DNA of 38,304 bases from a virus (lineage: Duplodnaviria > Caudoviricetes), in the IMG/VR virus record IMGVR_UViG_3300017648_000195, positions 1 to 38,304 of that record. One strand, 5' to 3'. The stretch's first letter is position 1, and each line of letters starts with the position of its first letter. Made by a program: the position numbers and the translations under genes. Shown piece after piece: positions 2,545 through 33,332 of this stretch. The notes beneath the pieces are model-generated. The model did not search any database, was not told the DNA's origin, and was given only the letters and a program-made list of their open reading frames with translations.

Positions 2545-2871
2545 ATGAGCATTTTAAAGCATATGGGTTTCAGTGCTGCTGCAGTAGGAGTTGTAGCTGG
2601 TATTCCTTACTTGTTTAACGAGTTGCAGAAACATTCGATTGCAGAAAACGAAGCAGCGCAGCGGCAACTAGATCAGTTGATGATTGTAACTGTGTCGCCA
2701 GCATTTGAAGTGCTTGAGATAAGTCAGCAGCAAGCAATTATCCGAGACACAAACGGCATATGGGTTGTTCGTGTTGGTGACGTTTTGCCGACAGGCGAAA
2801 CTATTACAGCAATCGGAAATGGAATAATGACTGATAAATCCCAAACATATACAGTGGGAAACAGTCGTTAA
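2545..2871 (+). CDS. Membrane-anchored protein with small C-terminal beta domain
   Basis: N-terminal hydrophobic segment; C-terminus FEVLEISQQQAIIRDTNGIWVVRVGDVLP; GAGGG RBS. Confidence 0.65.
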   Translation: MSILKHMGFSAAAVGVVAGIPYLFNELQKHSIAENEAAQRQLDQLMIVTVSPAFEVLEISQQQAIIRDTNGIWVVRVGDVLPTGETITAIGNGIMTDKSQTYTVGNSR

Positions 2872-2949
2872 ATAGCAACGGACACAACGTCCGACTGCTC
2901 AGTGGGGTTAGCAATGCGGCTAACCCCATTTTCTTTTAAGGTATACGTT

Positions 2950-3312
2950 ATGAGTTACAAGGATTTCATCACCGAACTATTTGATAAGTCGAAAGCCTAT
3001 CACGAAGCGCAAGGCGCAGTATGGGCGATTACGCTTGCGCAGTTTCGCGAGCGGATGAAGGAGTTAGGTTTCGAGCGGCCTGCTCCTATGGGTCAAATAC
3101 TGGTCGTGCAACGGGTTTCGCGCAAGCGCAAGGAATGGACGCCGGACAATCTCAAGTTCCATGTGAAGGCCGTCCCCCCATCCTATGCCGCAAAGACGCA
3201 GAAACACGTCAAGGACGCGCAAGGGCAGTCCGACGCTTCGCAAGTACGTTTGTTGACGCGTCAGCAGTGGGTGAGCGAATTACGGGCAGATAAGGCCCAC
3301 CTGCATAAATAG
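2950..3312 (+). CDS. Hypothetical phage protein
   Basis: 120-aa ORF with AAGG RBS and TAAATA at 2869. Confidence 0.6.
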   Translation: MSYKDFITELFDKSKAYHEAQGAVWAITLAQFRERMKELGFERPAPMGQILVVQRVSRKRKEWTPDNLKFHVKAVPPSYAAKTQKHVKDAQGQSDASQVRLLTRQQWVSELRADKAHLHK

Positions 3313-3316
3313 GATT

Positions 3317-3408
3317 GAGGACGTTTACACCCTTTACGATCCTCCCGCACAGCGCTCCAGATGCGGTAAGGCCCACTTGGTTCAGTCATCCCAAGTGGGC
3401 TTTTTATT
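3317..3408 (+). ncRNA. Candidate three-hairpin sRNA
   Basis: ATAAATA at 3305-3311; hairpins GAGGACGT/ACGATCCTC and CCGCA/TGCGG; terminator GCCCACTTGG/CCAAGTGGGC plus TTTTT; no ORF. Confidence 0.5.
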
Positions 3409-3646
3409 GATGTGAAGTGGTATTTGGATGAAAATTTATGGAGCGCGAAACAAAATCTCGATGAAACAAATTGAAGCTGGAGGAATTTGAAACAGAAAGT
3501 TTATGGTAGATAATAGAAACGAAACAATGACAAACAGATTTTTACAATAGATCACTGATAGCAATAGTAAAATCCAAAGAAACAATATTGTCCTGCGATT
3601 TTACTTGTGCTAGGCCGGTGGTAACAGCAACAGCGGAGGGCATAAC

Positions 3647-4530: not shown

Positions 4531-4863
4531 TCACTCGGGATTTATTATCTGCCCTTCGCGTCGAGCAGCAGCAGTCCATTTGCTCAACGGCAAGTCCGTT
4601 TGGAAATGCAGATCGCGTTCAACACGCCATAGATTGAATATCAGCAGTTGTTCGAGTTCCTTTAAACTCACGTAACCGAGTTCAGGTTCACCAAGCCCCA
4701 GATCACACAGTCCAAAGCACGTGTCGCCATCTGGCAGCATATCCTTGAGCAACCACGTGGCTTTCGTATTTGGGACGAACAATCTGACGACCGGCGGGTG
4801 ATCTGCCTCGCAATTCCGATTGTTTTCGGCCAGCTTCAAGCGTTGTTGAGGTGTAAGCAGCAT
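4531..4863 (-). CDS. DUF2958 family protein
   Basis: PVVRLFVPNTKATWLL...FGLCDLGLGEPELGYVSLKEL...VERDLHF signature. Confidence 0.9.
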   Translation of the reverse strand: MLLTPQQRLKLAENNRNCEADHPPVVRLFVPNTKATWLLKDMLPDGDTCFGLCDLGLGEPELGYVSLKELEQLLIFNLWRVERDLHFQTDLPLSKWTAAARREGQIINPE

Positions 4864-5018
4864 TATGCGGCCTCACTTTTCATGCCCAGCACTTCCATTT
4901 CATACCGGCTCTCGTTTAGCCTGCGCCATGCTTTCCATGCTGCTACAGTTGGGAACACCTTATCGAAAGCATCACCAGCAATTTTGCCCCACACCTGAAA
5001 TCCAACTTGTGCTTGCAT
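4863..5018 (-). CDS. Small hypothetical protein
   Basis: GGAG RBS before ATG 5018; stop overlaps the DUF2958 start. Confidence 0.55.
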   Translation of the reverse strand: MQAQVGFQVWGKIAGDAFDKVFPTVAAWKAWRRLNESRYEMEVLGMKSEAA

Positions 5019-5210
5019 TTGCTTAACTCCGTTTTGCGTTTGCAACTCAGAGTTATTGCCGTTGGATTCAAAGGGCGAGCATAGACTGCTCTGGAAAAGG
5101 CAGTCTTTTCAATTACTTGGCTTTGCGATTGAAATTTGTATGGGTGTAATTAACTTCGCTTTGGTGTAGCTGGAAAAACAAAAAGAATTCAATGGGTTGA
5201 TAGAATAATA

Positions 5211-5242
5211 TTGACGCTCAAAATGGGTGTTCTGTATAAATA
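5211..5242 (+). promoter_or_regulatory. TATAAATA (T4 late consensus) overlapping a possible sigma70 promoter
   Basis: TATAAATA at 5235-5242; TTGACG at 5211-5216 with an 18-bp spacer. Confidence 0.6.
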
Positions 5243-5401
5243 GAAGTGACGCGAAACATTGGGCGATGAGGTAGCGTCAAGTTACCTAGAGCAGTGTTTC
5301 GTATCAAGTTCCTAAAGAGAAAAATGATTGTGACTCTGCTCGCTAGCCCAATGTCGAGCAGGGTCATTTTTCTTTAAAATCATTTTTCTAAGGACAAAGT
5401 T

Positions 5402-6376
5402 ATGGAACTTCACAACAATCTCACAACATCGGATATTATTGAACGTATCAAGCAAGCAAATGGCATCTATGATGATGACGCACGTCCTGCTTCTGATAGC
5501 ATTGGTGGTATTGATTATTTCGCTAACCGCGACTCTTTTAAGGATATAACCAAGCGCAAAGCAGGCGCGACTCTTTTAAATAATAAGGAATGTAATGTAA
5601 TCCTTAAAGCAGTCGCGCCTACGGCGCATGACGACTGCCAAGTAAGGGGTGATTTATCTATCACTGGGGAGAATAAGGCGCTCGCGGCTACGCCTGCTTC
5701 GCAAACTAATGGTGTCGCGGACTCGCTTCACTCACCCAGCGACGAAGATAATGAACTAATGGACGATGCTGTTCCGCTCGAAGACGAGGCCGTGCTGGCC
5801 GACGACGAGTTGTTCGACCCGGACTTCTACAAGATGCGCATTGATCTGTTCGACAACGGTGCACAGGCGAACAAGACGCAGTGGACAGCGAAGATCACCG
5901 CGCTCGTCAATCCCGATAGTGATCCTGAAAATCCCTATGTGATGGTTGCCAACTATTACAGTCGTTCGCGCGACTTTCGATCAGCCATCAAGAAGCGCGA
6001 CATGTGGTGCAGCTTTTACGATGAAGTAGAAGCCGTATTTGAAGAACACGTTCATGCTGGCCTTGATTATAAGGTCAAGCCGATGATCGCTATTCTCAAG
6101 GAGCAGGTGAAGCACGAAGGAGGCAAGCCATCGTATCTGCCAATCGGTTACACAGCGTCAATCATGTATCAGGAACACGGGTGCGATCCGGTGGTCTGGG
6201 TCATTTACCAGAATTTTCTTCGCGAAGTTCATCTGGATCAGGCGTTCACTGTGCAGAAGGCCAGCAAACTCTACAAGATTGGTATCTATCGCGATCCTAC
6301 TCGCGTTCACTTGGAACCGCGTAAGGACAAGCCGATCCAAATGGTAGTTCGAAAGCCGGGTGATTTCGGAAAGTAA
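5402..6376 (+). CDS. Hypothetical protein, possible replication initiator containing origin-like repeats
   Basis: 324-aa ORF with AAGGA RBS; internal repeats at 5528-5620; no family recognised. Confidence 0.7.
   Translation: MELHNNLTTSDIIERIKQANGIYDDDARPASDSIGGIDYFANRDSFKDITKRKAGATLLNNKECNVILKAVAPTAHDDCQVRGDLSITGENKALAATPASQTNGVADSLHSPSDEDNELMDDAVPLEDEAVLADDELFDPDFYKMRIDLFDNGAQANKTQWTAKITALVNPDSDPENPYVMVANYYSRSRDFRSAIKKRDMWCSFYDEVEAVFEEHVHAGLDYKVKPMIAILKEQVKHEGGKPSYLPIGYTASIMYQEHGCDPVVWVIYQNFLREVHLDQAFTVQKASKLYKIGIYRDPTRVHLEPRKDKPIQMVVRKPGDFGK
5528..5620. repeat. Iteron-like direct and inverted repeats around an AT-rich core
   Basis: CGCGACTCTTTTAA at 5528-5541 and 5566-5579; inverted copy TTAAAGCAGTCGCGCCT at 5604-5620 (15/17 match to 5563-5579). 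Confidence 0.75.
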
Positions 6377-6452
6377 GCGTTTTGATGCTGTTTGAAGCGT
6401 TCCCAGTGACCCTTGAGTAAATACAAGCGGAGAAAAAACGGGAGCGCTTCAA

Positions 6453-6635: not shown

Positions 6636-6650
6636 TTAAAGGGTAATAAC

Positions 6651-7824: not shown

Positions 7825-7886
7825 GTCCAGCAAAGACACGATCAAACCCGGCTTTGCCGAGTTTTTTGATATGGGATAAATAACAA

Positions 7887-8433: not shown

Positions 8434-8556
8434 GCGGAGAAGCCCCGGAAACGGGGCTTTTCTATGAGTGCCGTTTGAAGCCTCAAATGGGCTTTTCAGC
8501 TTAAATACTTGGACAAAGGAGAACTCAACGGTTGGGTTCCACAAGAGGAACACAGC

Positions 8557-8946
8557 ATGTTTGAGTCAATCACGGCCTTTTTGATATCCATCGGAATTAA
8601 CCCCTCACATGTATTTGCGGGCCTCGCTGGCGCTCTTGTGCGCACGTTTATCATGGGCAAGCGCTGGACATGGGAAACGCTCATGGGGTCACTCGTTGGC
8701 GCTCTTTGTGCGATCTATTTGACCCCGCTGATCGGTACATGGCTCGGCCTGAACCTGCTGGACCTGAGCGTGAACAATGCGCTTGCGTTTGCACTAGGAA
8801 TGCTCGGCCTATCACTAGCGGAAGGACTTGTGAGACTCGCACAGCGTTGGGCAAACAATCCGAAATTGCCAGTTCGCTTGAGCATGAGGGGATTTGCAGA
8901 AGCCGTAAACGAGGCGGACGAAAAGCCCAAGAGCAAGGCCGAATAA
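8557..8946 (+). CDS. Putative holin-like membrane protein
   Basis: Three hydrophobic segments and a charged C-terminal tail; GAGG RBS; TAAATA at 8502. Confidence 0.65.
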   Translation: MFESITAFLISIGINPSHVFAGLAGALVRTFIMGKRWTWETLMGSLVGALCAIYLTPLIGTWLGLNLLDLSVNNALAFALGMLGLSLAEGLVRLAQRWANNPKLPVRLSMRGFAEAVNEADEKPKSKAE

Positions 8947-8976
8947 ATATCCGGAAGACAACTTTCGGAGCACAAA

Positions 8977-9420
8977 ATGACTACAATCATCAGCACTAGC
9001 ACCCACGGCATCGCTCATCAGGGCAACCTATACGTGGCGACATTAAAGACGGGCTGCGCACTTAGCACCGACCCCGAAGAGTTAATCCGAACAATCCAGA
9101 AGCACGAGGAAGCCAAGCACGAAGAGGTGTTTAGCGATGTCGTCACATGGACATTCGTTCGTTCGGATCACGCCGCGCATTACGACAATTGGCTCGCATT
9201 GCAGCAGAACGCGAGCCAGCAGGGGCCACTTTCACGACAACTCGGCCATATCATGTATCACGTCCCGATATCGCAACAGACGAAAGATGCAGCGGAGTGG
9301 ATCGCACAGAACGCAAAGTCTCGCGTCCACTCATGGGTAATTCCGGGCACCGATCTTTGGTATTGGATTTTCGAGGACGCACAGGAAGCAGTAGTGTTTC
9401 GATTGGCTGTGACGCTATGA
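8977..9420 (+). CDS. Hypothetical phage protein
   Basis: GGAG RBS, ATAAATA at 8943; ATGA overlap with the next gene. Confidence 0.7.
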   Translation: MTTIISTSTHGIAHQGNLYVATLKTGCALSTDPEELIRTIQKHEEAKHEEVFSDVVTWTFVRSDHAAHYDNWLALQQNASQQGPLSRQLGHIMYHVPISQQTKDAAEWIAQNAKSRVHSWVIPGTDLWYWIFEDAQEAVVFRLAVTL

Positions 9421-9731
9421 GAAACCGCTTTGAACAGAAGGTCGCCGCACAAGTAGGACCGGGATTTGCATATGAAGCAAAGCGATTGCCCTACACACTC
9501 TCACATACGTATTTGCCGGATTTCATCAACGAGCAGACCAAGGAGATAGTAGAGGCGAAAGGGCGGCTAACGGCAGCAGACCGAAAGAAGATGCTCGCAG
9601 TAAAGGCGGCTCATCCCGATTATAAAATCACCATCGTATTTCAGAACCCAACGTTGCCTATTAATAAAGGGAGCAAGACCAGCTACGCGGATTGGTGCGA
9701 CAAGTACGGCTTTGCATGGCGACAGGCATGA
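9417..9731 (+). CDS. T7 endonuclease I-like Holliday junction resolvase
   Basis: RNRFEQKVA...YLPDF...IVEAKGR...DRKKML...HPD...SKTSYADWCDKYGF matches the T7 gp3 family. Confidence 0.9.
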   Translation: MRNRFEQKVAAQVGPGFAYEAKRLPYTLSHTYLPDFINEQTKEIVEAKGRLTAADRKKMLAVKAAHPDYKITIVFQNPTLPINKGSKTSYADWCDKYGFAWRQA

Positions 9732-11276: not shown

Positions 11277-11906
11277 ATGCAACCTATACAACCTGCAAGT
11301 TACGTTGCTTATTATCGCGTATCGACTGCAAAGCAAGGACAGAGCGGACTTGGACTAGAGGCACAACGCAAAGCATGTGCGGGTTACAGTCCCATAGCCG
11401 AGTTCACCGATATCGAGTCGGGCAAGAACAATGACCGTGACCAGTTGCAAGCAGCAATGCAGTTTGCACGAGCGAATAAGGCCACACTGGTATTTGCCAA
11501 ACTGGACCGTCTGTCGCGTAATGCAGCATTCATACTATCGTTGATGGAGAAAGGTGTTCGCATACGTTGTGCGGACATGCCGGATGCAGATGAGTTCCAA
11601 TTACAACTGTATGCAATCTTGGCGCATAAAGAACGCCGGATGATCTCAGAACGCACCAAAGCAGCACTGGCAGCGGCAAAAGAACGGGGCGTTAAATTGG
11701 GTGGTACACAAGCAAGCACGAGAGCGCGCATAGATGCTTTCGACAAACGTATGTTTCCCATTGTCCAGAGCATCATAGACAGCGGTGCTGTAGGTCCAGC
11801 AGCAATAGCGCGTGAGTTAAACGCAAAGCAAATACCAACAGCAGCAGGCAAACAGTGGGTTTCCACGCAGGTTACGCGCTTGATAAAAAGAATAGAAAGA
11901 ATGTGA
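11277..11906 (+). CDS. Small serine recombinase (resolvase/invertase family)
   Basis: VAYYRVST catalytic motif, ESG...R, KLDRLSR, ERRMISERTKAALAAAKERG; AAGGAG RBS. Confidence 0.93.
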   Translation: MQPIQPASYVAYYRVSTAKQGQSGLGLEAQRKACAGYSPIAEFTDIESGKNNDRDQLQAAMQFARANKATLVFAKLDRLSRNAAFILSLMEKGVRIRCADMPDADEFQLQLYAILAHKERRMISERTKAALAAAKERGVKLGGTQASTRARIDAFDKRMFPIVQSIIDSGAVGPAAIARELNAKQIPTAAGKQWVSTQVTRLIKRIERM

Positions 11907-11996: not shown

Positions 11997-12392
11997 ATGA
12001 ATCAGGCACTTGCAATTCTCAAAGCAGCAGCAACGACCGGTATTGTCGCTCATCGTGATCCAGTTGAGATTTTCCTGAACAAACTGGATATGCAAATTGC
12101 TTACGCTAAGCAGGTGAAGGAAGGGAAGGAAATCAACACACGGTCGCTGTGGTTCAAGAAAGAGGGTGCGGAATATATCGTACGTGTTGGTCGTAATGCT
12201 TTCGAGATTGCCGGTTCGAAGTTGTTCAAGGCCAAAGACCTCGACACTGTTGTTGAATTGCTCGGTGCTGCAAAGCAGGCCATTCGTGAGGACAAGGCAC
12301 TACAGCAGGTGATTGCCCGGCATAGCGCGGATCGCAGTGAACGGCTGAAAGCTGGACGCGCTGAAGGCAAGAAGAAGGAAGCGAAGAAGTAA
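11997..12392 (+). CDS. Hypothetical basic protein
   Basis: 131-aa ORF, AAGGA RBS, terminator at 12423-12447. Confidence 0.75.
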   Translation: MNQALAILKAAATTGIVAHRDPVEIFLNKLDMQIAYAKQVKEGKEINTRSLWFKKEGAEYIVRVGRNAFEIAGSKLFKAKDLDTVVELLGAAKQAIREDKALQQVIARHSADRSERLKAGRAEGKKKEAKK

Positions 12393-16907: not shown

Positions 16908-17291
16908 CTAGTGCTTTTTCTGATCCGGTGGCGGAAGTAGTTCGGCCTCAATGACATTACCTTCAATGAGTTCACGAGCCTTCGCGGCTTTTGCAAGCAG
17001 GTCTGCGGTGTGTGTGATCTGCACATCAACATCGATATCGACCTTCTGCGCAGCCTTCGGAACTGTGGTCGATAGGAATATTTCAGCGGCTTTCAAACGT
17101 GCCATTTCATTTTTGCCATTGAGCATAATGTCTTCGACTGTAAGCAGCGCAGACGGCGACAAGTAGGCGATTGCTGTTTTCAGTTCGTCTGCAATAGGCG
17201 GCCGACCCTTGGGATTGCCTGATATACCCTTGCTGAATGCGTGTTTGCGCAGGTTTGCAAGCTGGCGCTCTGTCAGTGGTTTCTTTGCCAT
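16908..17291 (-). CDS. Probable terminase small subunit (DUF5681-type N-terminus)
   Basis: QLANLRKHAFSKGISGNPKGRP motif; close to terL. Confidence 0.7.
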   Translation of the reverse strand: MAKKPLTERQLANLRKHAFSKGISGNPKGRPPIADELKTAIAYLSPSALLTVEDIMLNGKNEMARLKAAEIFLSTTVPKAAQKVDIDVDVQITHTADLLAKAAKARELIEGNVIEAELLPPPDQKKH

Positions 17292-19123: not shown

Positions 19124-19202
19124 CGCGCAACGGCACGAGCCAAATAAATATGAGCATAACAACAAAAATGAGAACGGCGGAACAACCGCCGCGAAAGGCG
19201 CT

Positions 19203-21485: not shown

Positions 21486-21495
21486 GGGAGAACTT

Positions 21496-21759
21496 ATGAA
21501 TCAGGAAATTATTGCGCGTGGTGAAAACGCGAGACGTGTTCTGGACAATCCAGATTTCAAGCAGTTGCTTACCGATATTAAGCGCCATTTGTTTGACAAG
21601 TTTTCAGCGACGAACACCCTCGATGTGGAGGAACGGGAGAACCTTCACAAGTTGACGCTGGCTTGCAACCTGCTTGAAATGCGTGGACGCAAGTTCATCG
21701 AATATGCAGATACAGAGATCGCACTGGATGCTCAGCGCAAGGCATCCAAAGAAGCGTGA
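21496..21759 (+). CDS. Small head-module protein
   Basis: GGGAG RBS; lies between portal and scaffold. Confidence 0.75.
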   Translation: MNQEIIARGENARRVLDNPDFKQLLTDIKRHLFDKFSATNTLDVEERENLHKLTLACNLLEMRGRKFIEYADTEIALDAQRKASKEA

Positions 21760-21814
21760 AAAATATTCAATTCAATAAATACCTCAACAATAACAACAAT
21801 TGAGGTATCAACTC

Positions 21815-22876: not shown

Positions 22877-22893
22877 TTAAGGAGAAGCCAAAA

Positions 22894-23844
22894 ATGGCCG
22901 CATATACCAGTTATTCCGGTAAAAATATTGCAGAAGATATTGATAGCATTATCAACAATATCGACCCAACAGAAACCCCTCTATATTCCTCTTTGAAGAA
23001 GCGTTCGGCTGGCAATCGTAAGGTTGAATGGCTTTCGGACGATATTCGTCCTTCTAACCCAACGAACAGCGTTGCAGAAGGCGCGGACAGCGTTGACTCT
23101 GTTCTTTCGTCTCCGAAGCGTTTCAACAACTACGTTCAGGAATTTCAGGGCGTTGTAAACGTTTCCGACATTGCTAACGCTGTTGACACCATCGGTTACA
23201 AGCAGGAACTCGGTTACAAGACCAGCCTTGAAGGTAAAGCGCTCAAGCTGGATATCGAAGCCGCGATCGTCGGTAACAACGCAAGCCGCCCCGGTGCACA
23301 AATGACCGAAGGTGGATTGTTCGCAGGTATGGAGTCTTGGATTAAGACCGCAGCGAGCCATGGTACTGACGGTGAAACACTCGGTTTTGATGAAAATACT
23401 CATCTTGTTTCTGCACCGACAGACGGTACTGTTCGCGATCTCACAGAAGAACTTTTGCTTGATACGCTCCAGATTTCTCATGAAGCAGGTGGCACACCGA
23501 GCAAGATCATCGTTCCAGCGAACCTCAAGCGCGCTATCTCCCGTTTCTCTGGTGATGCCGTTCGCAACATGGAAACCAAGGACCGCAAGGTAACAAACAC
23601 CGTCCAGATCATCGAAGGTGACTTCGGGATTTACGATGTGTCATACCACAACAAGGTTCGTTCCACGACGGTTATTGCTTACGATCCTGCTCTTTGGGAA
23701 CTTGCTGTATTGCAGGGCTTCAAGACCAAGGACTTGCCAGCAAACGGTTCTTATCAGCGCAAGTTGCTCAACACCGTTGTTTCCCTCGTTTGCAAGAACG
23801 AGAAGGGCAACGCGAAGATTGCAGACGTAAAGCGCGGCGCTTAA
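22894..23844 (+). CDS. Major capsid protein (SU10/DUF5309-like)
   Basis: EDIDSIINNIDPTETP...VEWLSD...EGAD...NYVQ...LKLDIE signature; AAGGAG RBS; hairpin at 23857-23878. Confidence 0.9.
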   Translation: MAAYTSYSGKNIAEDIDSIINNIDPTETPLYSSLKKRSAGNRKVEWLSDDIRPSNPTNSVAEGADSVDSVLSSPKRFNNYVQEFQGVVNVSDIANAVDTIGYKQELGYKTSLEGKALKLDIEAAIVGNNASRPGAQMTEGGLFAGMESWIKTAASHGTDGETLGFDENTHLVSAPTDGTVRDLTEELLLDTLQISHEAGGTPSKIIVPANLKRAISRFSGDAVRNMETKDRKVTNTVQIIEGDFGIYDVSYHNKVRSTTVIAYDPALWELAVLQGFKTKDLPANGSYQRKLLNTVVSLVCKNEKGNAKIADVKRGA

Positions 23845-23915
23845 TCCGCAAGCATAGTGGGGGCGTAATTGCCCCCACAGCACCCAATAATAACAATAAG
23901 AAAAATGGTGCTGTT

Positions 23916-24221
23916 TTGGACAAAAGAATACTATTTGAAGTTAAGCCCGATGGCACAGAAATTTGGTGGCATACAGACGGCGCTTTCATCACAATCGAAC
24001 ATGTTGTTCCTGTTGATCAGATTATTGATGACAACAAAACAGCAGAGGCCGCATTCAATCGCAGTGGAAAACTCGGCGATCTCGTACTTCACGCGGAACT
24101 TCCCGCGCAGATGTATTGGGATTTGTACGAGAAAGGAGTTGTCGAGGATCGAACAGCGTTCAAGCGCTTTTTGAATGATCCCGATAACAAGTACCTGCGT
24201 AAAAATAATTTGAGGTTGTAA
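23916..24221 (+). CDS. Conserved post-capsid hypothetical protein
   Basis: FKRFLNDPDNKYLR C-terminal motif; TTG start inferred. Confidence 0.7.
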   Translation: MDKRILFEVKPDGTEIWWHTDGAFITIEHVVPVDQIIDDNKTAEAAFNRSGKLGDLVLHAELPAQMYWDLYEKGVVEDRTAFKRFLNDPDNKYLRKNNLRL

Positions 24222-24222
24222 C

Positions 24223-24807
24223 ATGGCAATCTCAAATTACTCAGACCTACAGCAAACAATTGCCGATTACATTTTGCGTCCCGATGCGCCGATCAAGTCA
24301 TTCATCGCATTAGCGGAGAATGATGTTTCCGTATTTGTGCGCCACTACATGCAGGAAACGCAGGTAACGCTCACAAGCAGCAACAATGAAGTTTTATTGC
24401 CAGCTAATTTTCAGGAAGCGCGCCGCATTGTCATTGATGGTGTCTTGGCGACGCCAGTTAGCGCGTACCGTGCAATTCTTCGCCCTGGCGAAATCGGCTA
24501 TTACCAGCGTGGCAACTCCTATGTGATCGTGCCAGAGCGTGACGAGCCGCGCAGTGTTGAACTCATCTATTATGCGCGTGTCCCGGTCCTTTCCGATGCA
24601 GAGCCTACAAACTGGTTGTTGCAGCGTTTTCCCACTGTCTTGTTTCATGCCTCGCTTGTTCGTGCATATCGCTGGCTTAAAGACCCGACAGCAGAAGCAC
24701 AGGAGAAAGCCAGCCTTCAGGAAGCGTTCGGCATAGTCGTTGCAGACGACAAGCGCGCTGTTACCAGTGGCAACCAGCCGACGGTTGATTTCGGAGGTGG
24801 GTGGTGA
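24223..24807 (+). CDS. Head-tail adaptor protein
   Basis: MAISNYSDLQQTIADY...FIALAE...TNWLL motif pattern and gene position. Confidence 0.8.
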   Translation: MAISNYSDLQQTIADYILRPDAPIKSFIALAENDVSVFVRHYMQETQVTLTSSNNEVLLPANFQEARRIVIDGVLATPVSAYRAILRPGEIGYYQRGNSYVIVPERDEPRSVELIYYARVPVLSDAEPTNWLLQRFPTVLFHASLVRAYRWLKDPTAEAQEKASLQEAFGIVVADDKRAVTSGNQPTVDFGGGW

Positions 24808-26327
24808 TTATCGACAGCGTTTTCGGCCCATGGCGTCCTGACTTTCCAGACCTCAACAATCCGGGCCTTACGATGGCTCGTAATGTCACAGCGGGCGCAG
24901 GTGCTATGCAGGGCACAGTCACTTACAGCGCGTTGAAGCGCGCTCGCTTATACTCCGCTACATCAATGGCGAGTCGTCCGACTGGAACAGCGGTTGGTTT
25001 GGACCAGTACAACAATGCTAAGGTTTACGGTGGTTGTGCGAGCGCTCTTTATAAGTTGTCGCCGGGTGATCGCCAGTGGACGGATATGTCACGAACTGGC
25101 GGCTACAATGGCACTGAGTCAGATCGTTGGCAGTCCGTGGAATATGGCCCATATCAGATTTTCACAAATTTCACGGATGCACCGCAATACGTGGACATGA
25201 ACACCGACTTGCAGTTTGCCGACCTTACTTCGCTGGTTAAAGGCAGACGTATCGGCACTCACAAGGGATTCGTGATCCTTGCGAACACGTGGGACCCGCT
25301 CGATTCCTTCAAACCCAATCGCATTCGTTGGAGCGGTCAAGGTTATCCGAGTGATTGGGCGTTCTCCGCACAAACACAGGCAGACTTTCAGGATATTAAC
25401 GGCTACGGGCCAATTCAACGTATCGTTTGCGAGAATGACGTTTGGGTATTCCTCAAGAATGGCATCGTTCAAATGTCCTATATCGGTGCGCCATATGTGT
25501 ATCGTTTCGATACTCGCGTTGAGGGCAAGGGCTGCTCAGTTCCAGAAAGCCTAGTTACGGTCGATGGCAAAACCTTCTTCCTCAGCGATGACGGCTTTTA
25601 CATGTTCCAGAATGGCAACCTCATGCCAATCGGGAACGGCAAGGTAAACAAGTATTTCCTCCAGAAAGCGGAATCCTCGCAGTTCCATTTGATGACTGCC
25701 ATGGTCGATCCACGTGCATCTTTGATCCATTGGACATTCGTTAGCGTGGACACGCCGAACGGCCTTCCCGACAAGACGATGATCTATAACTACCAGACCG
25801 GCGAATGGTCAGAGGCAGAGGCTACAGCGCCATTCACGTTCAATACGATTGCGCTTTCATGGACAATCGACAAGCTGGACGAATTCGGAACGCTTGATGA
25901 TGTGCCTGCCAGTTGGGACGATCCAATTTGGGCGGGTGGCTCTGCATTGCTCGCGGGTATGGATATGACCGGCAACGTCTACATTTATTCAGGTGACACA
26001 TTGCCAGCGATCTTCGAGACGCAGGAGCAATTGCTCATCAATTCGGTTCGGGCTGTTGATCCTAAAGCAGTAGGCGACCGCACAAATGTTATGGGTGTGC
26101 GCCCGTTTTTCGAAGGTTCGCAGGCAACGGCTTCTGTTGCAGTGGGATCGCGCAGCACAAGCAACGGCGTGGTGCAGTGGTCAAATCCATCGCTCCAACA
26201 TGCCGAAACGGGCTTCGCATATTTCCGCGTTCAAAATCGCTTCCATCGCTTTCGTCTGCAATTGCGCGGTGAATGGGACAAAGCAAGTGCCATTCAAATA
26301 GACGCTAATGCGGCGGGTTTCAGATAA
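24804..26327 (+). CDS. Tail nozzle/stabilisation protein (P22 gp10-like)
   Basis: ~508-aa beta-rich protein after the adaptor; FFLSDDGFY motif; GGAGG RBS. Confidence 0.75.
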   Translation: MIIDSVFGPWRPDFPDLNNPGLTMARNVTAGAGAMQGTVTYSALKRARLYSATSMASRPTGTAVGLDQYNNAKVYGGCASALYKLSPGDRQWTDMSRTGGYNGTESDRWQSVEYGPYQIFTNFTDAPQYVDMNTDLQFADLTSLVKGRRIGTHKGFVILANTWDPLDSFKPNRIRWSGQGYPSDWAFSAQTQADFQDINGYGPIQRIVCENDVWVFLKNGIVQMSYIGAPYVYRFDTRVEGKGCSVPESLVTVDGKTFFLSDDGFYMFQNGNLMPIGNGKVNKYFLQKAESSQFHLMTAMVDPRASLIHWTFVSVDTPNGLPDKTMIYNYQTGEWSEAEATAPFTFNTIALSWTIDKLDEFGTLDDVPASWDDPIWAGGSALLAGMDMTGNVYIYSGDTLPAIFETQEQLLINSVRAVDPKAVGDRTNVMGVRPFFEGSQATASVAVGSRSTSNGVVQWSNPSLQHAETGFAYFRVQNRFHRFRLQLRGEWDKASAIQIDANAAGFR

Positions 26328-26352
26328 ATATCTGCGACCATAAGGAGGCGAA

Positions 26353-26643
26353 ATGGAAGGCGTTTATAATCCAGAAGACCCAAAACATGTTGCGCGTGTC
26401 GTGAATGATCTTGTTCGTCAATTCGATAATACAGGATCGTTGACACTCAACACGTCTGCAACATCGACGGTTGTTATGAATCCGAAGGTCGTTTGGTCAA
26501 CAGTTCCATTTCTTATTCCAGCTAACGCGAATGCAAAAGCAGAACAGTGGTGGATTGAAAGTGTTGGCATCGGACAGTTTACGGTCGGCCATGCAAGTTC
26601 AACGACTGCAAGGAAATTTTATTACGTATTACATGGAGTATAA
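26353..26643 (+). CDS. Small tail-associated protein
   Basis: AAGGAGG RBS; ATAAATA at 26324. Confidence 0.7.
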   Translation: MEGVYNPEDPKHVARVVNDLVRQFDNTGSLTLNTSATSTVVMNPKVVWSTVPFLIPANANAKAEQWWIESVGIGQFTVGHASSTTARKFYYVLHGV

Positions 26644-27050
26644 TGGCGATAAAGCGGATTGATACAGCGGTTGATTTTGATGCTGAATATCCGCGAGTAC
26701 GAGAATGGCTAATCAGCGCATTCAAATATTCCGCCAATAAAATTGATGAGCGTCAATTGCTCCAAGGACTGGACGAGCGAGATTACTTGCTTTGGACAGC
26801 CAATAACGCGGCTTGTGTAACCTCACTAACCGAATGGCGTGGTCATCCAGTTTGCGTGTTCTTTGTTGTCGGCGGTGCAGCAGGGAAAGCAATCAAAGAG
26901 ATTTTTGAAGAAGGCTTGCCGGTAGTCGAGCAATACGCACGAGAGCACAACTGCAAATATGTGCTGGGTATTGGTCGAATACAGTGGGTGAGAATTGTCG
27001 AACGATACGGTTTCACAACAGAAGGAAACGAATACTATAAGGAAGTTTAA
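26643..27050 (+). CDS. GNAT-fold-like virion assembly protein
   Basis: VEQYAREHNCKYVLGIGRIQW...YGF pattern; located before the ejection proteins. Confidence 0.6.
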   Translation: MAIKRIDTAVDFDAEYPRVREWLISAFKYSANKIDERQLLQGLDERDYLLWTANNAACVTSLTEWRGHPVCVFFVVGGAAGKAIKEIFEEGLPVVEQYAREHNCKYVLGIGRIQWVRIVERYGFTTEGNEYYKEV

Positions 27051-27052
27051 TT

Positions 27053-28582
27053 ATGGGAAGTACGCCTAAAGAAACAACAACAAAGGTGGAACCTTGGGAC
27101 GGCGCGAAACCTTATATTTTGGAATATTTGAAGCAAGCCGATCAGATGTACAAGGATGGCAAGCCCGAATATTATCAGGGCAGCACGGTAGCCGACCAGT
27201 CACCAGCCACTAAAGATGCATTGGCCCAACAGGAAGCGCTTGCGCGTCAGGGTTCATCTGCAATCACGAATGCACAGAACACCGTCAACAACATCACGCA
27301 GGGAAACAACTTCTCGCAGCAGCCTAACCAAACGCTGTCGCAGTTGCAGAATGGCGTTGATGTGGGAACCAACCCAGCGACAGCGGGTGTTAACAATATT
27401 GCCAGCGGCGCGAACACCGGACAAGCACCGGGACAATCCACGCTTAACGCAGGTGCAAACTACACGAACGCCGCTTCCGGCTTGCAGCAGCAGCAGGCGA
27501 ACAATCTTGCAGGATCGAACAATCCAGCGATGGATTATTTGCAGCAAACTGCGTCCGGCGCGAACATCGGCAACAATCCATATTTGGATCAGATGGTTGC
27601 GACACAGCAGGGCAAGATTGCCGAGCAACTTGCCACTGTCACGAACCCGCAGATAGCCTCTCAGGCCGCATCATTGGGTCGAATGGGTTCTGCTGCATTT
27701 GCTAATCAGCGCAACAAGGCAGACCAGACAGCAGCAACCGCAATGGCGCAAGTTGCAACCGATATGTACGGGAATCAGTACAATACGGATAAGGATCGCC
27801 AGTTGTCGGCGGCTGGTCAGTACGGCAATTTCTACAATACCGATCAGCAGAACCAGATGCAGGCCAATTCAAATCTCGCGAGCACGAGTTCGAACCAACA
27901 AGGCTTGCGCAATGACGCTGCAAACTCCCTGAATAGCCAGTACCAGTTCGATAAAAATTACCAGCTACAGGGCTTAGGCTTGCAGAATGACATTTATCAG
28001 CAGGGCGTGAACAACAAATTCAACAACGCCAACTTGCAGATGAATGCCGCAAATTCACAAGCGGGTAATCAGAACGCACAGGCTAACACTCAGTTGGGTG
28101 CTGCTGGTATGGCTGGTGATATGTATGGGCTTGGCTATCTGCCTTCGCAGTATTTGCAGCAGATCGGTGCGATGCAGGATGAACGCAGTCAGAACGTCTT
28201 GAATGCAGATATTCAGCGTCATGATTTCCAGCAAAACCAGCCGCTAGCGAACATTGCCAACATGATCAATCTGGCCAACGGTGGCGGGTACAACAACACC
28301 ACAACGCCGGTTTATTCCAACACAGGCAGTCAGGTGCTTGGTGGATTGACCTCGCTGCTTGGTCTGTTCTCGCTTTGCGATGAGCGCACCAAGATTGTTT
28401 TCGAGTGCGTCGGCAAATTCCCGAACGGCATTCCAATGTATCGCTTCGCGTACAAGGACAACCCGGAAGAAATCTTTATCGGGCCGCTTGCGCATGAGGT
28501 TGAGGAAGTTCTGCCGGATGCAGTCGTTGAGATTAACGGCGTGAAACTCATCATCAATGATACATTTATGGAGGCTGCATAA
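27053..28582 (+). CDS. DNA ejection/pilot protein with C-terminal peptidase S74-like chaperone domain
   Basis: Q/N/A/G-rich body; C-terminal CDERTK...YRFAY...GPLAHEVEEVLPDAV. Confidence 0.75.
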   Translation: MGSTPKETTTKVEPWDGAKPYILEYLKQADQMYKDGKPEYYQGSTVADQSPATKDALAQQEALARQGSSAITNAQNTVNNITQGNNFSQQPNQTLSQLQNGVDVGTNPATAGVNNIASGANTGQAPGQSTLNAGANYTNAASGLQQQQANNLAGSNNPAMDYLQQTASGANIGNNPYLDQMVATQQGKIAEQLATVTNPQIASQAASLGRMGSAAFANQRNKADQTAATAMAQVATDMYGNQYNTDKDRQLSAAGQYGNFYNTDQQNQMQANSNLASTSSNQQGLRNDAANSLNSQYQFDKNYQLQGLGLQNDIYQQGVNNKFNNANLQMNAANSQAGNQNAQANTQLGAAGMAGDMYGLGYLPSQYLQQIGAMQDERSQNVLNADIQRHDFQQNQPLANIANMINLANGGGYNNTTTPVYSNTGSQVLGGLTSLLGLFSLCDERTKIVFECVGKFPNGIPMYRFAYKDNPEEIFIGPLAHEVEEVLPDAVVEINGVKLIINDTFMEAA

Positions 28583-30039
28583 TGGCCGGATTTGATATTT
28601 TAGAGTTATTGAAGCGCTTGCGTGGCGAACAGGAACAGACAGGGTTGCTCGGTGCACAGGCCGAGCAACCAGCACCAGAGCAAGCCCCCGCACAGGCAGC
28701 ACCTACCGAAAGTGGTGGCGGTGGTTTGCTTGGTAGCTTTATGCCGTCCGATCCGTCGAAGCGTGAGGCGATGGCGATGGCGCTTATGAGTGGCGGCGCG
28801 AATATGATGGCGGCAGGCGGTCCATCGACAACACCAATGAATTTCGGAAGTGCGCTCGGTGCTGGTTTCAGTGGCGGCGTGCAAGCGTATCAGGAAGCCA
28901 TGAAAAATGATGCTGCTATCGGTGCAAGCCGTTCGAAGGTTCGTACTGACCAGCTAAAAATGCAGCAGGCACAGGACGCACAGGATTTCGCAAATACCAT
29001 CGATGCCAATGGCAATAACCCGTTTTCGATTGAGTTTCTAAAGAAGTATCTCAAGAGACAGATCGCCAGTGGAGACGATGAAGGTGCACGTGCAACGATG
29101 GCTTTGATCCAGCGTCTTGACGACGAGCAGCGTAAAGATGGCCGTGTGCTTGATGAAAACGGCAATTACGTCAACGCCGATGGCACTGTTGATGCCGCGA
29201 GAGAAATGGAACAGGGCAAGGCCGCTGGTCGTGTTGCAGGTGAGGAATCGCAGAAACTCACCGACGATATTCGCGAGTACAATTTGTATCGCGATCAGCA
29301 GAAGGCCAAAGGTCTTGAGCCGATGGAGTTCCGTGATTGGATGCTTGATCAGAAACGAGCGTCGGCACAGCAGATCACAATCGGCGGTGGCACAGACAAG
29401 CAGTTCTTCGATACCATGCTGGAGCAGAACAAGACTGCGCAGCAGAACGTCAAGGGTCTCACTGCTATCGGTAACGCTCGCCAGTCGGTGCAGGATGGAG
29501 CAATTCTCGGTGCTGGTGCTGATTTCCGATTGGGCTTGCAGAAGATTGGCGCTTACTTAGGCGTCACCGACAGCGATAAAATCTCGAACACAGAAACTTT
29601 CCGATCTGCAATTGCCCCGCAGGTTGCAGCGATGTTGAAGGAAACAGTTGGTTCGACACAGATTTCGGACAACGACCGTGCGTTTGCTGAAAAAGCGGCA
29701 GGTGGTTCTATCGATTTGGATGAGAAAACCATTCTCCGTTTGCTTGATATCATGGAGCGCATGAACCGCGTCTCGCTTGAGAATTATCAGCGTCGTGTCG
29801 ATACGATCTATCCCGAAGGCAAGGGCTTTGATCGCGAACGCGCAATCCTGCAAGTGTCCGTTCCAGAGCCGGTTGCTCCGAAGTCTAAGGCCGACAAGAA
29901 GGGTCCGAGATTGTTGGGGGCAACTGCGCCAACAACCGATAACGATACCTTCACTGACGATCAGGGCGTTAAATATCGTTACATCGGGCCAGCGGGTGGC
30001 AATCGCAATGACCCGAAAAATTGGGAAGAAGTACGATAA
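28582..30039 (+). CDS. Internal virion/DNA ejection protein
   Basis: 485 aa with a Gly/Ala hydrophobic patch followed by a helical region; position in the module. Confidence 0.7.
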   Translation: MAGFDILELLKRLRGEQEQTGLLGAQAEQPAPEQAPAQAAPTESGGGGLLGSFMPSDPSKREAMAMALMSGGANMMAAGGPSTTPMNFGSALGAGFSGGVQAYQEAMKNDAAIGASRSKVRTDQLKMQQAQDAQDFANTIDANGNNPFSIEFLKKYLKRQIASGDDEGARATMALIQRLDDEQRKDGRVLDENGNYVNADGTVDAAREMEQGKAAGRVAGEESQKLTDDIREYNLYRDQQKAKGLEPMEFRDWMLDQKRASAQQITIGGGTDKQFFDTMLEQNKTAQQNVKGLTAIGNARQSVQDGAILGAGADFRLGLQKIGAYLGVTDSDKISNTETFRSAIAPQVAAMLKETVGSTQISDNDRAFAEKAAGGSIDLDEKTILRLLDIMERMNRVSLENYQRRVDTIYPEGKGFDRERAILQVSVPEPVAPKSKADKKGPRLLGATAPTTDNDTFTDDQGVKYRYIGPAGGNRNDPKNWEEVR

Positions 30040-30073
30040 TTAGAGAAGCCCGGTAAACGGGACGAGGTGAATA

Positions 30074-31138
30074 GTGGCAAAGCCCGCACTCAATAGTAAT
30101 GCGCATTATGCTTATCGATATTACATCGACAAATATAATCTGAAACCGCACCAAGCAGCCGGTATTGTCGGCAATCTTATGCAGGAAAGCACCATGAACA
30201 CGGGTGCGCGCAATAAGGGTGACGGCAGCGACGGCACGGATAGTATCGGCATTGGTCAGTGGAATGGTGATCGCGCTCGCGCTTTGCACCGTTTCGCTGG
30301 TGGCAACGTGAACAATTTGGACACACAGTTAGATTTCGTAATTCACGAAATGCGCAACGGTCCAGAACGTGCCGCCTGGAATAACCTCATGGCAGCGGAC
30401 AACGTGAACGACGCGACCGCTGCAATGATCGGTTACGAACGTCCCTTCGGTTATAAGCGAGACAATCCACGTGCCGGTCACGGTTGGGATAATCGATATG
30501 CTTGGGCGCAGGAAATTAACGGTGCAAGCCCAACGGATATAGCTAGAAGCGCACAGTCACATTTGGGATCGACGCAGCAGCCGGACTTCGGTTCGCGTGT
30601 TGAACCTGCAACGCAGGAGGTGTCACAACCGACCGCAGAGCAGCAGACAGCGCAAGCAACGGCACCTAGCACCCCTGATGACCGTGGCTTCGGCCAGCGC
30701 TTGTTTGATCGTGTTTTGGGCACGGAAACACCGGAGCAAGCAAAATCACCGGTTCTCGGAAAAATGCTGCCAGATGAATTCATGGGCGTGAACACCAAGA
30801 AGGGAATCAACCTGCTTGGCGCTCTTAGTTCATCGATGCAGGAAGCAGACGCGCAAGCGAACAAGCAGGTGCAAGCAGCATCGCAGTCGGCACAGGCCAG
30901 ACGCGGACAGGCGCAGCCGGTTCAAGTTTCCATGATGAGTTCGATGGCAAAGCCGAACCAACAGGACATGGGCCAAGCGCTTACGCAGATGCGCGACCAA
31001 GGCACGAATTCACAAACGAAAGACATTGCAAGCCTGTTGCTGGCTCTCAATGGCGCAAACAATCCGAACGCGCTCCAAGACCTATTGAAGAAAAAGAAAA
31101 CTGGTTGGGGCGGCAGTTACGGAAATTGGGGAGCATAA
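30074..31138 (+). CDS. Virion-associated lysozyme (phage tail lysozyme family)
   Basis: QAAGIVGNLMQES...GIGQW...LDTQLDFVIHE...YERP motifs; long low-complexity C-terminal part. Confidence 0.88.
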   Translation: MAKPALNSNAHYAYRYYIDKYNLKPHQAAGIVGNLMQESTMNTGARNKGDGSDGTDSIGIGQWNGDRARALHRFAGGNVNNLDTQLDFVIHEMRNGPERAAWNNLMAADNVNDATAAMIGYERPFGYKRDNPRAGHGWDNRYAWAQEINGASPTDIARSAQSHLGSTQQPDFGSRVEPATQEVSQPTAEQQTAQATAPSTPDDRGFGQRLFDRVLGTETPEQAKSPVLGKMLPDEFMGVNTKKGINLLGALSSSMQEADAQANKQVQAASQSAQARRGQAQPVQVSMMSSMAKPNQQDMGQALTQMRDQGTNSQTKDIASLLLALNGANNPNALQDLLKKKKTGWGGSYGNWGA

Positions 31139-31141
31139 GAT

Positions 31142-33259
31142 ATGAAGCCATGGGAAATGGACTGGTCACATCTGGACCAGCAGACCGAGCAAAAGCCGAA
31201 GGGCAAGAAGCCTTGGGAAATGGATTGGAATGAGGACGGTACGCTCAAGCAGAGCGAGCCAGCACAGCAGGAAGAACCCGCAATAGCCGAACCTGATATT
31301 GCTGATCTTGACCGCGATTTACGTGTCTCATGGGGCACACGTATGGAACTAGGAGCATTGCATAAACCGGAAGATCGATTGAAGGCGATGCGAAAGCGTT
31401 ACCCGGATGCGCAACTCTACGGCGATGATGACATCATCTATACCGACCCAGAGACAGGTAAGGTCGGATTGCTCAATCCCGAAGGTTTCGATTTGGGTGA
31501 TATCCCTAGCATCGTTCCAGAAATTGGCGAAATAATCGGCGCTATCATTGGTGCTGGTGGTGGTGCAACAGTAACAGGTGCCGCCAGTTCTGTCGTTCCG
31601 GTACTCGGTACAGGTGCAGGCGCTGTTACCGGCGCGATGGCTGGTGCTGGTGCTGGCGGCGCAGCGGGTAAAGATATTGTCGAACGCGTTATCAATTGGG
31701 CGTACGACAACGAGGACACACGCGACACAGGCGAGTATATTAGGGATAAGGCGATTGACGCAGGCGTGAACGCGGCAGGCGAGGGCGTCGGTCGTGGTGT
31801 TGTCGCAGGCTTTAAAGCTGGCAAGCGCGGTATCGATGGACTGATTGCAGGAAAAGCCGACGATGCAGCAGAAGCAGCAGGACGATACAACGCATATAAA
31901 GAAGCAGGAGTTGAACCGACTGCCGGTATGATTACAGGCACGACGCGCACGACAGCCCGTGAAGGTCGCTTGCTTGCCGATCCTAGCAGTCGCGTTGCTC
32001 GTGCACACGAGTTGGCCGACGATATTCTGGATAAGCGATACACTGGTCTTGTCGATGGTGTTGCCGGTCCTCGCGGTGTGACAACACCGGAAGGTGCGGG
32101 CGCTGCTCTGCAAGAGGCGGGAACGCAGGCTAGAGACTTCATCAAGGGTCGCATTAACGACGCTTACGACCAGACCGACACGCTACTGCGAGACGCTCGT
32201 TCGCCCGGTAAGAATGTGCGTGAATTGCTTGATAATCTCCAGAAGGAGAAAGCCGCTTTCGGTCGCTCAGCCGAATTGAACAAAGGTCCGGTCATTGATG
32301 GCGCGATCAAACAAGCCGATGCGCTGTCAACGGACTCTGTTTTCAATGGCGTCCCGTTTGGTGATCTCAAGGAAACCCGCACAGCCATCGGCAATCTTGC
32401 ATTCGGCAATTCCGGTGCAAGCGCGTACGAGCAGAACCTTTATAAGCGTCTTTATGGTGCGATCACTGCCGATATGGACGATGCAGCGAAGCAGGCAGGG
32501 CAGGCCGGTATCGACTCGCTACAGGCGGCAGAGAAGGCCAATCGCGAATACGTCAAGCAGGGCGGCACAAAGGATTTGCTCAAGCCTTTGGTGAAAGAGG
32601 CAGATCCGATTAAGCCGTATCAGACGTTCCAGCGATATGTTCGTGAGGGCAATGCTACAGCGCTTGACCGCATGAGAACCGAAATCGGTGCATCCGGTGG
32701 TGATGAGCAATGGCGTCAGACTGTCGGCACGATGCTCGACAACATGGGACGCAAAGCCGACGAGAACGGCATTGAGGTTTTCAATCCGAAGAAGTTTTTT
32801 GCTGACTTCAACAAAATTCCTGACAACGTGAAGGACGTAATGTTCAAGGGAACGGACCTTGAGAAGTATCGTGCCGACTTGGACAAACTTCATAAGATCG
32901 CAGCTTTTCGCAGTGCCAATCCATCGAGGGCCACTCGCAGCAATTGGGGTAACAAACTGCTCGATATTGGTATGAGCGGCCTCGGTTCGATCACTGGCGG
33001 TCCATGGGGCGCGGCGGCAGGTGCGGTTGTTCGTCCGGTCAAGGAATTTGCAGCAAACGCATACATGGATCGCTTGCTTGTCGATCCTGAGTTTGTCGGC
33101 TGGCTCGCTGGCATCCCGCAAGCACAGATGCAGAAAGGCGGATTGCGTGAGTACGTGAAGAAACTCCACGTTATTCGCCGTGGCGCGTCTGCTGCAACTG
33201 CCGATGCGATCAACCGCTATATGCGCGATGCAGGAATTGACGGCGAAATCGAAGAATAA
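31142..33259 (+). CDS. Large internal virion/DNA ejection protein
   Basis: 705 aa, duplicated KPWEMDW at the N-terminus, Gly/Ala-rich membrane-insertion segments. Confidence 0.75.
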   Translation: MKPWEMDWSHLDQQTEQKPKGKKPWEMDWNEDGTLKQSEPAQQEEPAIAEPDIADLDRDLRVSWGTRMELGALHKPEDRLKAMRKRYPDAQLYGDDDIIYTDPETGKVGLLNPEGFDLGDIPSIVPEIGEIIGAIIGAGGGATVTGAASSVVPVLGTGAGAVTGAMAGAGAGGAAGKDIVERVINWAYDNEDTRDTGEYIRDKAIDAGVNAAGEGVGRGVVAGFKAGKRGIDGLIAGKADDAAEAAGRYNAYKEAGVEPTAGMITGTTRTTAREGRLLADPSSRVARAHELADDILDKRYTGLVDGVAGPRGVTTPEGAGAALQEAGTQARDFIKGRINDAYDQTDTLLRDARSPGKNVRELLDNLQKEKAAFGRSAELNKGPVIDGAIKQADALSTDSVFNGVPFGDLKETRTAIGNLAFGNSGASAYEQNLYKRLYGAITADMDDAAKQAGQAGIDSLQAAEKANREYVKQGGTKDLLKPLVKEADPIKPYQTFQRYVREGNATALDRMRTEIGASGGDEQWRQTVGTMLDNMGRKADENGIEVFNPKKFFADFNKIPDNVKDVMFKGTDLEKYRADLDKLHKIAAFRSANPSRATRSNWGNKLLDIGMSGLGSITGGPWGAAAGAVVRPVKEFAANAYMDRLLVDPEFVGWLAGIPQAQMQKGGLREYVKKLHVIRRGASAATADAINRYMRDAGIDGEIEE

Positions 33260-33332
33260 AGGTAAATACGAAACACAGGAACACGCAAAAGCGTGACACC
33301 CAATAACAATAATAAGAAAGCGGTGTTCACTT

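Follow-up and report, generated by a model that had tools for sequence, protein, structure and literature searches.

The satellite P4 and the phage-inducible chromosomal island (PICI)-like elements (PLE) take the virion proteins of their helpers; the late promoters of P4 respond to Ogr of phage P2, with P4 also having an activator of its own, delta, and PLE answers the lytic phage ICP1, makes a small RNA and recruits the replication of the helper. Here we analyze the element carried by IMGVR_UViG_3300017648_000195, a provirus record of IMG/VR (38,304 nucleotides; this whole stretch is called the window throughout). As with P4/P2 and PLE/ICP1, an integrated element activated by a helper is proposed but, unlike P4, PICI and PLE, the window element has complete head and short-tail genes of its own. 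We consider it probable that this is a full-virion satellite prophage, switched on by the late sigma factor (gp55) of a T4-like helper phage.

By analogy, the systems that appear closest in kind are the satellite viruses MulchRoom, MiniFlayer and Ando of Streptomyces and Aci01-2-Phanie of Acinetobacter, described as having capsid and packaging genes of their own, lacking replication genes and using a virulent helper, with MulchRoom and Ando integrating (PMC10690885, PMC13587820, PMC11476376). In these accounts, MulchRoom, Ando and Phanie borrow helper tails, whereas the family of the window encodes a whole short tail; MiniFlayer, unlike the window element, is non-integrating and attaches to its helper. 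In PMC10690885 and PMC13587820, the main text uses neither the word promoter nor the word sigma. The capsid-forming PICIs are, like the window element, integrated and equipped with their own capsid and terminase, as described (PMC10690885); they have no tails, whereas adaptor, nozzle, ejection and fibre genes are all present in the window element, in which no regulator of the Stl/AlpA type was found. Because both head and tail are encoded, the element is not P4-, PICI-, PLE- or capsid-forming PICI-like. An earlier note on this DNA had drawn the contrast with P4, PICI and PLE; this contrast is to be put less strongly, as satellites with their own capsids (MulchRoom, MiniFlayer, Ando and Phanie) are described and the late promoters of P4 respond to Ogr of its helper. 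In the open-access literature, supplements aside, we came across no prophage or satellite described as being under the control of T4-type late promoters, and the main text of the paper on the Ochrobactrum phage mentions neither promoters nor satellites (PMC7139368).

The T4 late promoter is described as lacking a −35 element, with gp55 alone giving basal transcription only (PMC7892883), and in phage CBB, ATAAATA is reported before structural genes (PMC5259590). The window contains 19 copies of TAAATA, namely, the 14 boxes listed in the earlier note and the two other copies it mentioned (5577; 14775 on the minus strand), all of which were recovered, and three more at 455 (+), 1086 (−) and 2436 (−). 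The enrichment over shuffled DNA that had been proposed as a check holds for placement but not for number. The raw count is not above chance (19 vs. a shuffle mean of 13.5; 9 of 100 shuffles reach 19). However, TAAATA is the top hexamer within 100 nucleotides upstream of 45 starts, being present before 10 genes (shuffle mean 1.74; 0 of 5,000 shuffles reach 10), where it outranks each of the 14 further hexamers composed of the same letters and every other TAA-NNN hexamer, and in antisense orientation it is absent from coding DNA (0 vs. 4.4 expected, P = 0.013). The 45 starts were curated by hand after the motif had been seen, so that the family-wide test given below carries more weight.

The boxes precede starts, as had been claimed, with some exceptions. 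Box 29970, which is within a coding sequence and at a place where a box is seen in only 2 of 18 elements, is probably due to chance; between each of boxes 2869 and 5237 and the next open reading frame (ORF), there is a terminator-like hairpin; and the distance from box to start, put at 22–160 bp, is 165 nt for box 5237. The claimed lack of a shared −35 element is borne out by the logos (149 element sites), which contain no −35 consensus. Three boxes (2869, 8944 and 26325) overlap a TAA stop codon, a caveat raised at the outset, and box 3306 overlaps the TAG stop of the 2950–3312 gene. An origin of the motif as a stop-codon artefact was considered and rejected: TAA serves as the stop in 38 of 323 family boxes, and other TAA-NNN hexamers score lower.

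The conservation of the boxes in homologous prophages was assessed at two levels. Alignment of the capsid protein yielded 110 loci (not dereplicated), which thresholds on terminase, nozzle or portal identity, set post hoc, divided into 64 ingroup and 46 outgroup loci. The box precedes the scaffold gene in all 59 scorable ingroup loci vs. 4 of 42 outgroup loci, and the portal gene in 44 of 45 vs. 0 of 20; the outgroup phages have the same type of virion, and the box is nearly absent from them. The named ingroup hosts are Methylobacterium, Rhizobium, Neorhizobium, Sinorhizobium, Shinella, Mycoplana, Agrobacterium and Brucella. Furthermore, 33 relatives were rebuilt as stretches of 29–50 kb, some partial or with host flanks, making 34 elements with the window, of which 20 form a dereplicated set with less than 75% terminase identity (range 42–75%). 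In this set, the box precedes terL in 18, portal in 19, scaffold in 19, g17 in 18 and fibre in 10 of the 20 elements, as well as holin in 10/18, lysozyme in 6/10, superfamily 2 (SF2) helicase in 5/8 and a gene for a 324-amino-acid protein in 6/6, compared to a shuffle expectation of 0.8–2.6 for the boxed gene classes (1.2–2.6 for terL, portal, scaffold and g17). Other genes of the same elements are essentially unboxed: adaptor (0/20), nozzle (0/20), capsid (1/20), serine integrase (1/11), tyrosine integrase (0/6), resolvase (1/18) and the gene denoted G12 (1/20). The box marks the heads of particle, lysis and putative replication operons without distinction, as a master switch would.

Podoviruses of the SU10/phiEco32 and PaP3/LUZ24 types are autonomous, with replication genes of their own. 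They have the same portal, capsid and adaptor families as the window element (capsid identity to PaP3-like phages about 31–33%); the outgroup loci are almost without the box. Family matches of the window ORFs assign the virion module to the SU10/PaP3 type. The terL, capsid, adaptor and nozzle genes are full-length in 34/34 elements, and adaptor, nozzle, ejection and fibre genes occur in nearly all of them.

The same box is found in T4-like phages of the same hosts. For vB_OspM_OC (Ochrobactrum) and phiM12 (Sinorhizobium), both of which encode gp55 (confirmed as phrog_234), 50-kb stretches were analyzed, the late genes being taken from the annotation. In both, TAAATA ranks first among the hexamers upstream of late genes (12/24 in vB_OspM_OC and 11/29 in phiM12); in the phiM12 stretch, the late strand carries 23 copies and the opposite strand 1. 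Phage phiM9 is reported to have gp55 and to lack gp33 (PMC4621102). At −1 of the box, the base is A or C in 1.00 and 0.87 of the sites in the two phages and 0.74 in the elements, giving the relaxed form (A/C)TAAATA, and a purine occupies the sixth position past the box at 0.94, 0.73 and 0.79 of the sites in these three sets. Thus, like the T4-family gp55 promoters (T4 TATAAATA; CBB ATAAATA; TAAATA of vB_OspM_OC and phiM12, derived here), the family boxes are single, with no −35 element, and share with them the purine about 6 nt downstream and hairpins that lock the ribosome site, as far as these are described (PMC7892883, PMC3014915, PMC5259590). Unlike those promoters, they lie in an unrelated integrated podovirus of about 36 kb in which gp55 was not detected (no separate search was made for gp33 and gp45). 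From their sequence, the boxes appear to work like T4-family late promoters without being the T4 octamer.

Genes are shared with these phages as well. The window fibre matches the vB_OspM_OC fibre at 62.6% amino acid identity (66% at the nucleotide level over 229 positions), the best match among 50,697 phage records, and the matching vB_OspM_OC gene itself sits behind two TAAATA boxes. The SegE-type gene of 8 elements has its top matches in phiM12, phiM7, phiM19 and phiN3 (64–65%), the endolysin of one element is 72% identical to that of phiN3 (71% in DNA over 523 nt), and fibre pieces of two elements show 74–79% DNA identity to phiM12. As a separate observation, an endolysin/GIY-YIG/SegE-type cluster occurs in phiN3 (L193 1796–3771) and, differently ordered and with another lysin family, in elements G023, G025 and G030 (L123 12665–14535). 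The G005 and G006 elements encode an immunoglobulin-like/GDSL protein (L169 9491–11617) with repeats shared at 50–55% with phiN3 gp308. In element G027 (L132 18350–19012), an AAA protein weakly (24%) resembles the clamp-loader gene of vB_OspM_OC, a likeness of interest because gp55 activation needs a loaded clamp.

At the RNA level, boxes 6418, 8944, 17663, 21776 and 17584 (minus) are each associated with a predicted hairpin in which the ribosome site is paired with sequence located at the presumed start or immediately upstream of it. The predicted unpaired fraction of the Shine-Dalgarno (SD) sequence in read-through vs. box-started RNA is 0.04 vs. 0.65 (6418), 0.26 vs. 0.82 (8944), 0.34 vs. 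0.78 (17584), 0.02 vs. 0.39 (17663) and 0.22 vs. 0.58 (21776), with no such difference predicted for boxes 2869, 8502 and 26325. Across 72 family sites, the SD lock exceeds that obtained after shuffling of the upstream DNA (P = 0.001), mostly due to terL and g17, and no lock was found at the fibre and holin sites. T4 gene e is described as using this design (PMC3014915). Boxes 2869, 3306, 5237 and 7877 are followed by terminator-like hairpins after 54–124 nt; for box 2869, the hairpin (2901–2930) lies before the 2950 gene, and an RNA of about 54 nt or an attenuated leader is predicted. Boxes followed by terminators are in modest excess in the family (62/323 vs. 30/300 random positions). When the short RNAs were compared to 106 kb of helper DNA, only 12–14-nt matches at chance level were found.

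The leader behind box 5237 recalls the antisense-controlled rep attenuators of plasmids. An antiterminator is predicted in 10 of 11 leaders before genes for the 324-amino-acid protein, VapE-like helicase or SF2 helicase (P ≤ 0.0033), compared to 2 of 17 other RNAs (P < 0.01); the design is the same, and the sequence different, before these three unrelated gene families. The shared design suggests that the 324-amino-acid gene fills a replication slot. The protein has no family match, and a 96%-identical relative has other genes in this slot. A likeness of the protein to RegA (Atlas score 0.83) was dropped, being unsupported by profile comparison (probability 0.05%) or a PDB search. Separately, the late leaders contain AAC/AAT-repeat stretches (19151–19170, 21786–21800, 23880–23900 and 33300–33320), which we take to resemble Hfq or translation-enhancer motifs.

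A reader of the boxes encoded by the element itself was sought in several ways. The gp55 family has no match in 35 of 36 records of elements and host genomes; Sigma70_r2 matches 0 of 22 virus records, and Sigma70_r4_2 and HTH_3 give three weak matches each among these 22, none over the cut-off. Neither among 85 shared-family ORFs scanned against PHROGs nor among 138 of 208 further ORFs scanned against Pfam was a sigma factor or CI-type protein revealed, the only regulator-like genes being one ArsR gene and one small helix-turn-helix gene. Among the 55 window ORFs, no match was found to polymerase, primase, helicase, sigma, repressor or endolysin families. The earlier statement that no sigma factor is recognizable accordingly stands for these profile scans, and the helper-activated satellite it had proposed is supported, as an inference, by box conservation, the match to T4-like phages, the lack of a detectable sigma factor or repressor, gene sharing, the hairpins and the lack of a cultured member.

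Several observations weigh against this interpretation. The fixed TA upstream of the T4 box is absent, positions −2 and −1 varying in the elements and in phiM12, and the family boxes fail to match the full T4 octamer, which within the window occurs at box 5237 only. Full gp55 activity is described as requiring gp33 and a loaded gp45 clamp (PMC7892883), and loading of the clamp on a prophage would be an assumed step. Gene sharing indicates a common gene pool and is not proof of dependence, and a shared history is spoken against by the common lysozyme family of the elements, which is not specific to T4-like phages, and by the DNA of window positions 2300–10000, which has no match in cultured phages. 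Some elements have lysozyme (22/34) or helicase genes (18/34) of their own, so dependence beyond transcription varies. One weak gp55-family match was obtained in G033 (13.7 bits over 40 positions), and most small ORFs have no known family, so that an unrecognized reader of the element's own is possible. The left end of the element is missing from the window, and the genes there are unseen. The interpretation is an inference from the sequence data.

The alternative best placed to use these gaps, which we consider unlikely, is that the element is an autonomous temperate phage in which an unrecognized factor of its own, G12 or the product of a gene to the left of the window, reads TAAATA. Podoviruses of the phiEco32 type use a sigma factor of their own, the virion module here is of the SU10/phiEco32 type, and many ORFs are unassigned. 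Besides terS, two unknown genes are near-universal, g17 (34/34) and G12 (33/34); G12 itself lacks the box, as would be expected of a master activator, and is the best candidate for an own regulator. Its predicted structure is alpha/beta (helix/three-strand/helix) and not sigma-like, the fold has no match in the viral and PDB Foldseek libraries, which leaves room for doubt against the helper reading too, and it is remotely similar (probability 56%) to a DUF6641 gene of a non-phage island at the same site. By contrast, g17 bears the box, and its model is RRM/ferredoxin-like and not sigma-like, with no Foldseek match and only generic RRM-like similarity (Z 6–7.4); at 50% identity, its homologues fall into about 50 clusters. 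The ORF scans revealed no CI-type switch, and an own factor leaves the match to the box of the helpers and the gene sharing unexplained. The non-phage island (G060:C30, about 133900–151200, L196) has a 91% identical serine integrase and carries a flagellar-hook-like gene beside the DUF6641 gene. For a 159-amino-acid protein, the Atlas search gave scores of 0.81 or less only.

Less likely still is that gp55 of an invader reads the boxes of an element that is mainly a phage-triggered defence or a domesticated relic (early holin, nucleases and small RNAs), rarely spreading as its own particle. The holin, endonuclease and short-RNA units bear boxes, no endolysin was detected in the window, and defence-like cargo is present (SIR2-like in the window; AbiJ-, PIN- and KAP-type in relatives). 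However, the terL, capsid, adaptor and nozzle genes are full-length throughout the 34 elements, fibres are exchanged, and the differing integrases and hosts (Methylobacterium, Rhizobium, Sinorhizobium, Shinella, Agrobacterium and Brucella/Ochrobactrum) point to ongoing mobility.

Recognition of TAAATA by a host sigma factor or regulator, e.g. as a −10-only promoter, is highly improbable: the box is AT-rich like a −10 element, and there is a weak A-rich patch 14–17 nt upstream, but 70 kb of host flanks contain 8 copies, compared to 16 in the 35-kb element, host genomes hold about half the copies of the reversed control, no −35 consensus exists and the outgroup phages lack the box. That the boxes are relics of an ancestor with its own gp55-like sigma factor, which would fit the lack of a detectable reader today, can be all but dismissed, given that relic DNA would have decayed, whereas the exact hexamer is kept at 42–75% terminase identity while the flanks diverge and the hairpins are co-placed.

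Activation by a T4-like helper, the reading that we prefer, concerns a family with no cultured member found (best identities 35.6% for terminase, 33% for capsid and 32% for nozzle); the 8977 protein has no match in cultured phages. In sequencing run X5, one contig joins the element and the host flank at depth 499, with the other element contigs at 511–521; this similar depth indicates that the element is integrated and not amplified there. In two RNA-library runs, the element appears in long flat contigs indistinguishable from DNA.

The features of the window are collected in Table 1. The element is about 35–36 kb in size, with 50% G+C compared to 58% in the right flank, and the window has no Rfam or tRNA match. 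Related hosts in which the site is empty, together with Brucella rhizosphaerae PR17, in which it is occupied, served to place the right junction; the right flank shares 98% identity with one genome of the genus Brucella and at most 73% with two further genomes scored. The left junction falls outside the window, so the tyrosine integrase and the omp2/RopA-family porin at 1–2289, between the phage genes and the left attachment site, are either inside the integrated region, as cargo, or on a second island. In run X16, the contig with this integrase has depth 23–25, equal to that of the element, compared to 360 for the right-flank contig; in run X5, the integrase has no cover. RopA1 is described as the receptor for several S. 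meliloti phages (PMC10132094), and the porin could alter helper entry. Inverted repeats of 13 bp (2486–2498 and 5067–5079) flank a 2.6-kb segment whose genes face the opposite way in most relatives and which is a possible substrate of the resolvase/invertase. The SIR2-like gene (9834–11003) has weak PADLOC hits and low GC, and a close relative in run X5 has other DNA there; a full-length flagellin gene (15957–16856), inside the element, has no box.

Table 1 Features of the window.
Positions	Strand	Feature	Remarks
2869..2874	+	TAAATA box	overlaps TAA stop of 2494–2871 ORF
2950..3312	+	conserved unknown gene	present in 14/34 elements; box upstream in 6/8 dereplicated
3306..3311	+	TAAATA box	before predicted ~89-nt terminated RNA with anti-SD-like stretch
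4531..5045	−	DUF2958 gene and small upstream gene	box before DUF2958 in 0/11
5237..5242	+	TAAATA box, full TATAAATA	before attenuator-like leader
5248..5371	+	predicted ~124-nt leader	5′ part complementary to own terminator (antiterminator/terminator switch)
5402..6376	+	gene for 324-amino-acid protein	slot filled in relatives by VapE-like or SF2 helicase genes
6418..6423	+	TAAATA box	inside predicted hairpin locking ribosome site of 6453 gene
7877..7882	+	TAAATA box	before predicted ~70-nt terminated RNA with anti-SD-like stretch
8502..8507	+	TAAATA box	before holin gene
8557..8946	+	holin gene	likely start 8557, end 8946
8944..8949	+	TAAATA box	overlaps holin stop; SD-locking hairpin predicted; before 8977 gene and endonuclease I
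9417..9731	+	T7-type endonuclease I	downstream of 8977 gene
11277..11906	+	small serine resolvase/invertase	in 32/34 elements; box upstream in 1/18
11997..12392	+	G12	near-universal; without box (1/20)
16908..17291	−	terS
17291..17557	−	g17	universal (34/34 elements); predicted RRM/ferredoxin-like fold
17584..17589	−	TAAATA box	before g17-terS
17663..17668	+	TAAATA box	before terL; predicted hairpin arm begins within box
17699..35426	+	virion module, short-tailed, complete	terL, SU10-type portal, scaffold, capsid, adaptor, nozzle, ejection proteins, fibre, fibre chaperone-like gene
19145..19150	+	TAAATA box	before portal
21776..21781	+	TAAATA box	before scaffold-capsid operon; predicted hairpin arm begins within box
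26325..26330	+	TAAATA box	overlaps nozzle stop; before 26353 gene (11/17)
33263..33268	+	TAAATA box	before fibre gene
34443..34712	+	fibre residues 371–460	best match: vB_OspM_OC fibre
35777..37534	−	large serine integrase	adjoins right junction; box upstream in 1/11
37640..37642	+	right attachment junction, 3-bp core	upstream of host outer-membrane protein gene

The proposed course of events is as follows. In the lysogen, the host RNA polymerase would leave the boxes unread, and the predicted hairpins would lock the ribosome sites in any read-through RNA. Upon infection by a phage like vB_OspM_OC or phiM12, the gp55-holoenzyme would start RNAs about 6 nt past each box, with the ribosome sites freed, and the attenuated leader would gate the gene in the replication slot. 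The element would then excise and replicate with helper and host enzymes, and package itself by its own terminase; the window element, with no detectable endolysin, would exit through the lysis of the helper. The integrase lacks the box, so the trigger of excision is not accounted for by it. In a broader form, towards which we lean only slightly, these are temperate phages without a repressor or late activator of their own, for which the late sigma factor of an invading T4-like phage is alarm and master switch at once, which assemble whole particles themselves and exchange fibres and lysis genes with the helper, the podovirus family of the Rhizobiales being one lineage of a new class of parasites.

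If this is true, a widespread group of seemingly 'cryptic', non-inducible prophages would be waiting for a lytic T4-like phage and not for DNA damage, which would explain the absence of cultured members, and TAAATA before virion genes combined with the lack of a sigma factor would be a signature for finding such parasites. Well-studied phages (phiM12 and phiN3) would permit a direct test of gp55 naturally transcribing non-phage DNA. Lysates of T4-like phages propagated on these lysogens could contain a second phage, which bears on phage therapy and biocontrol stocks.

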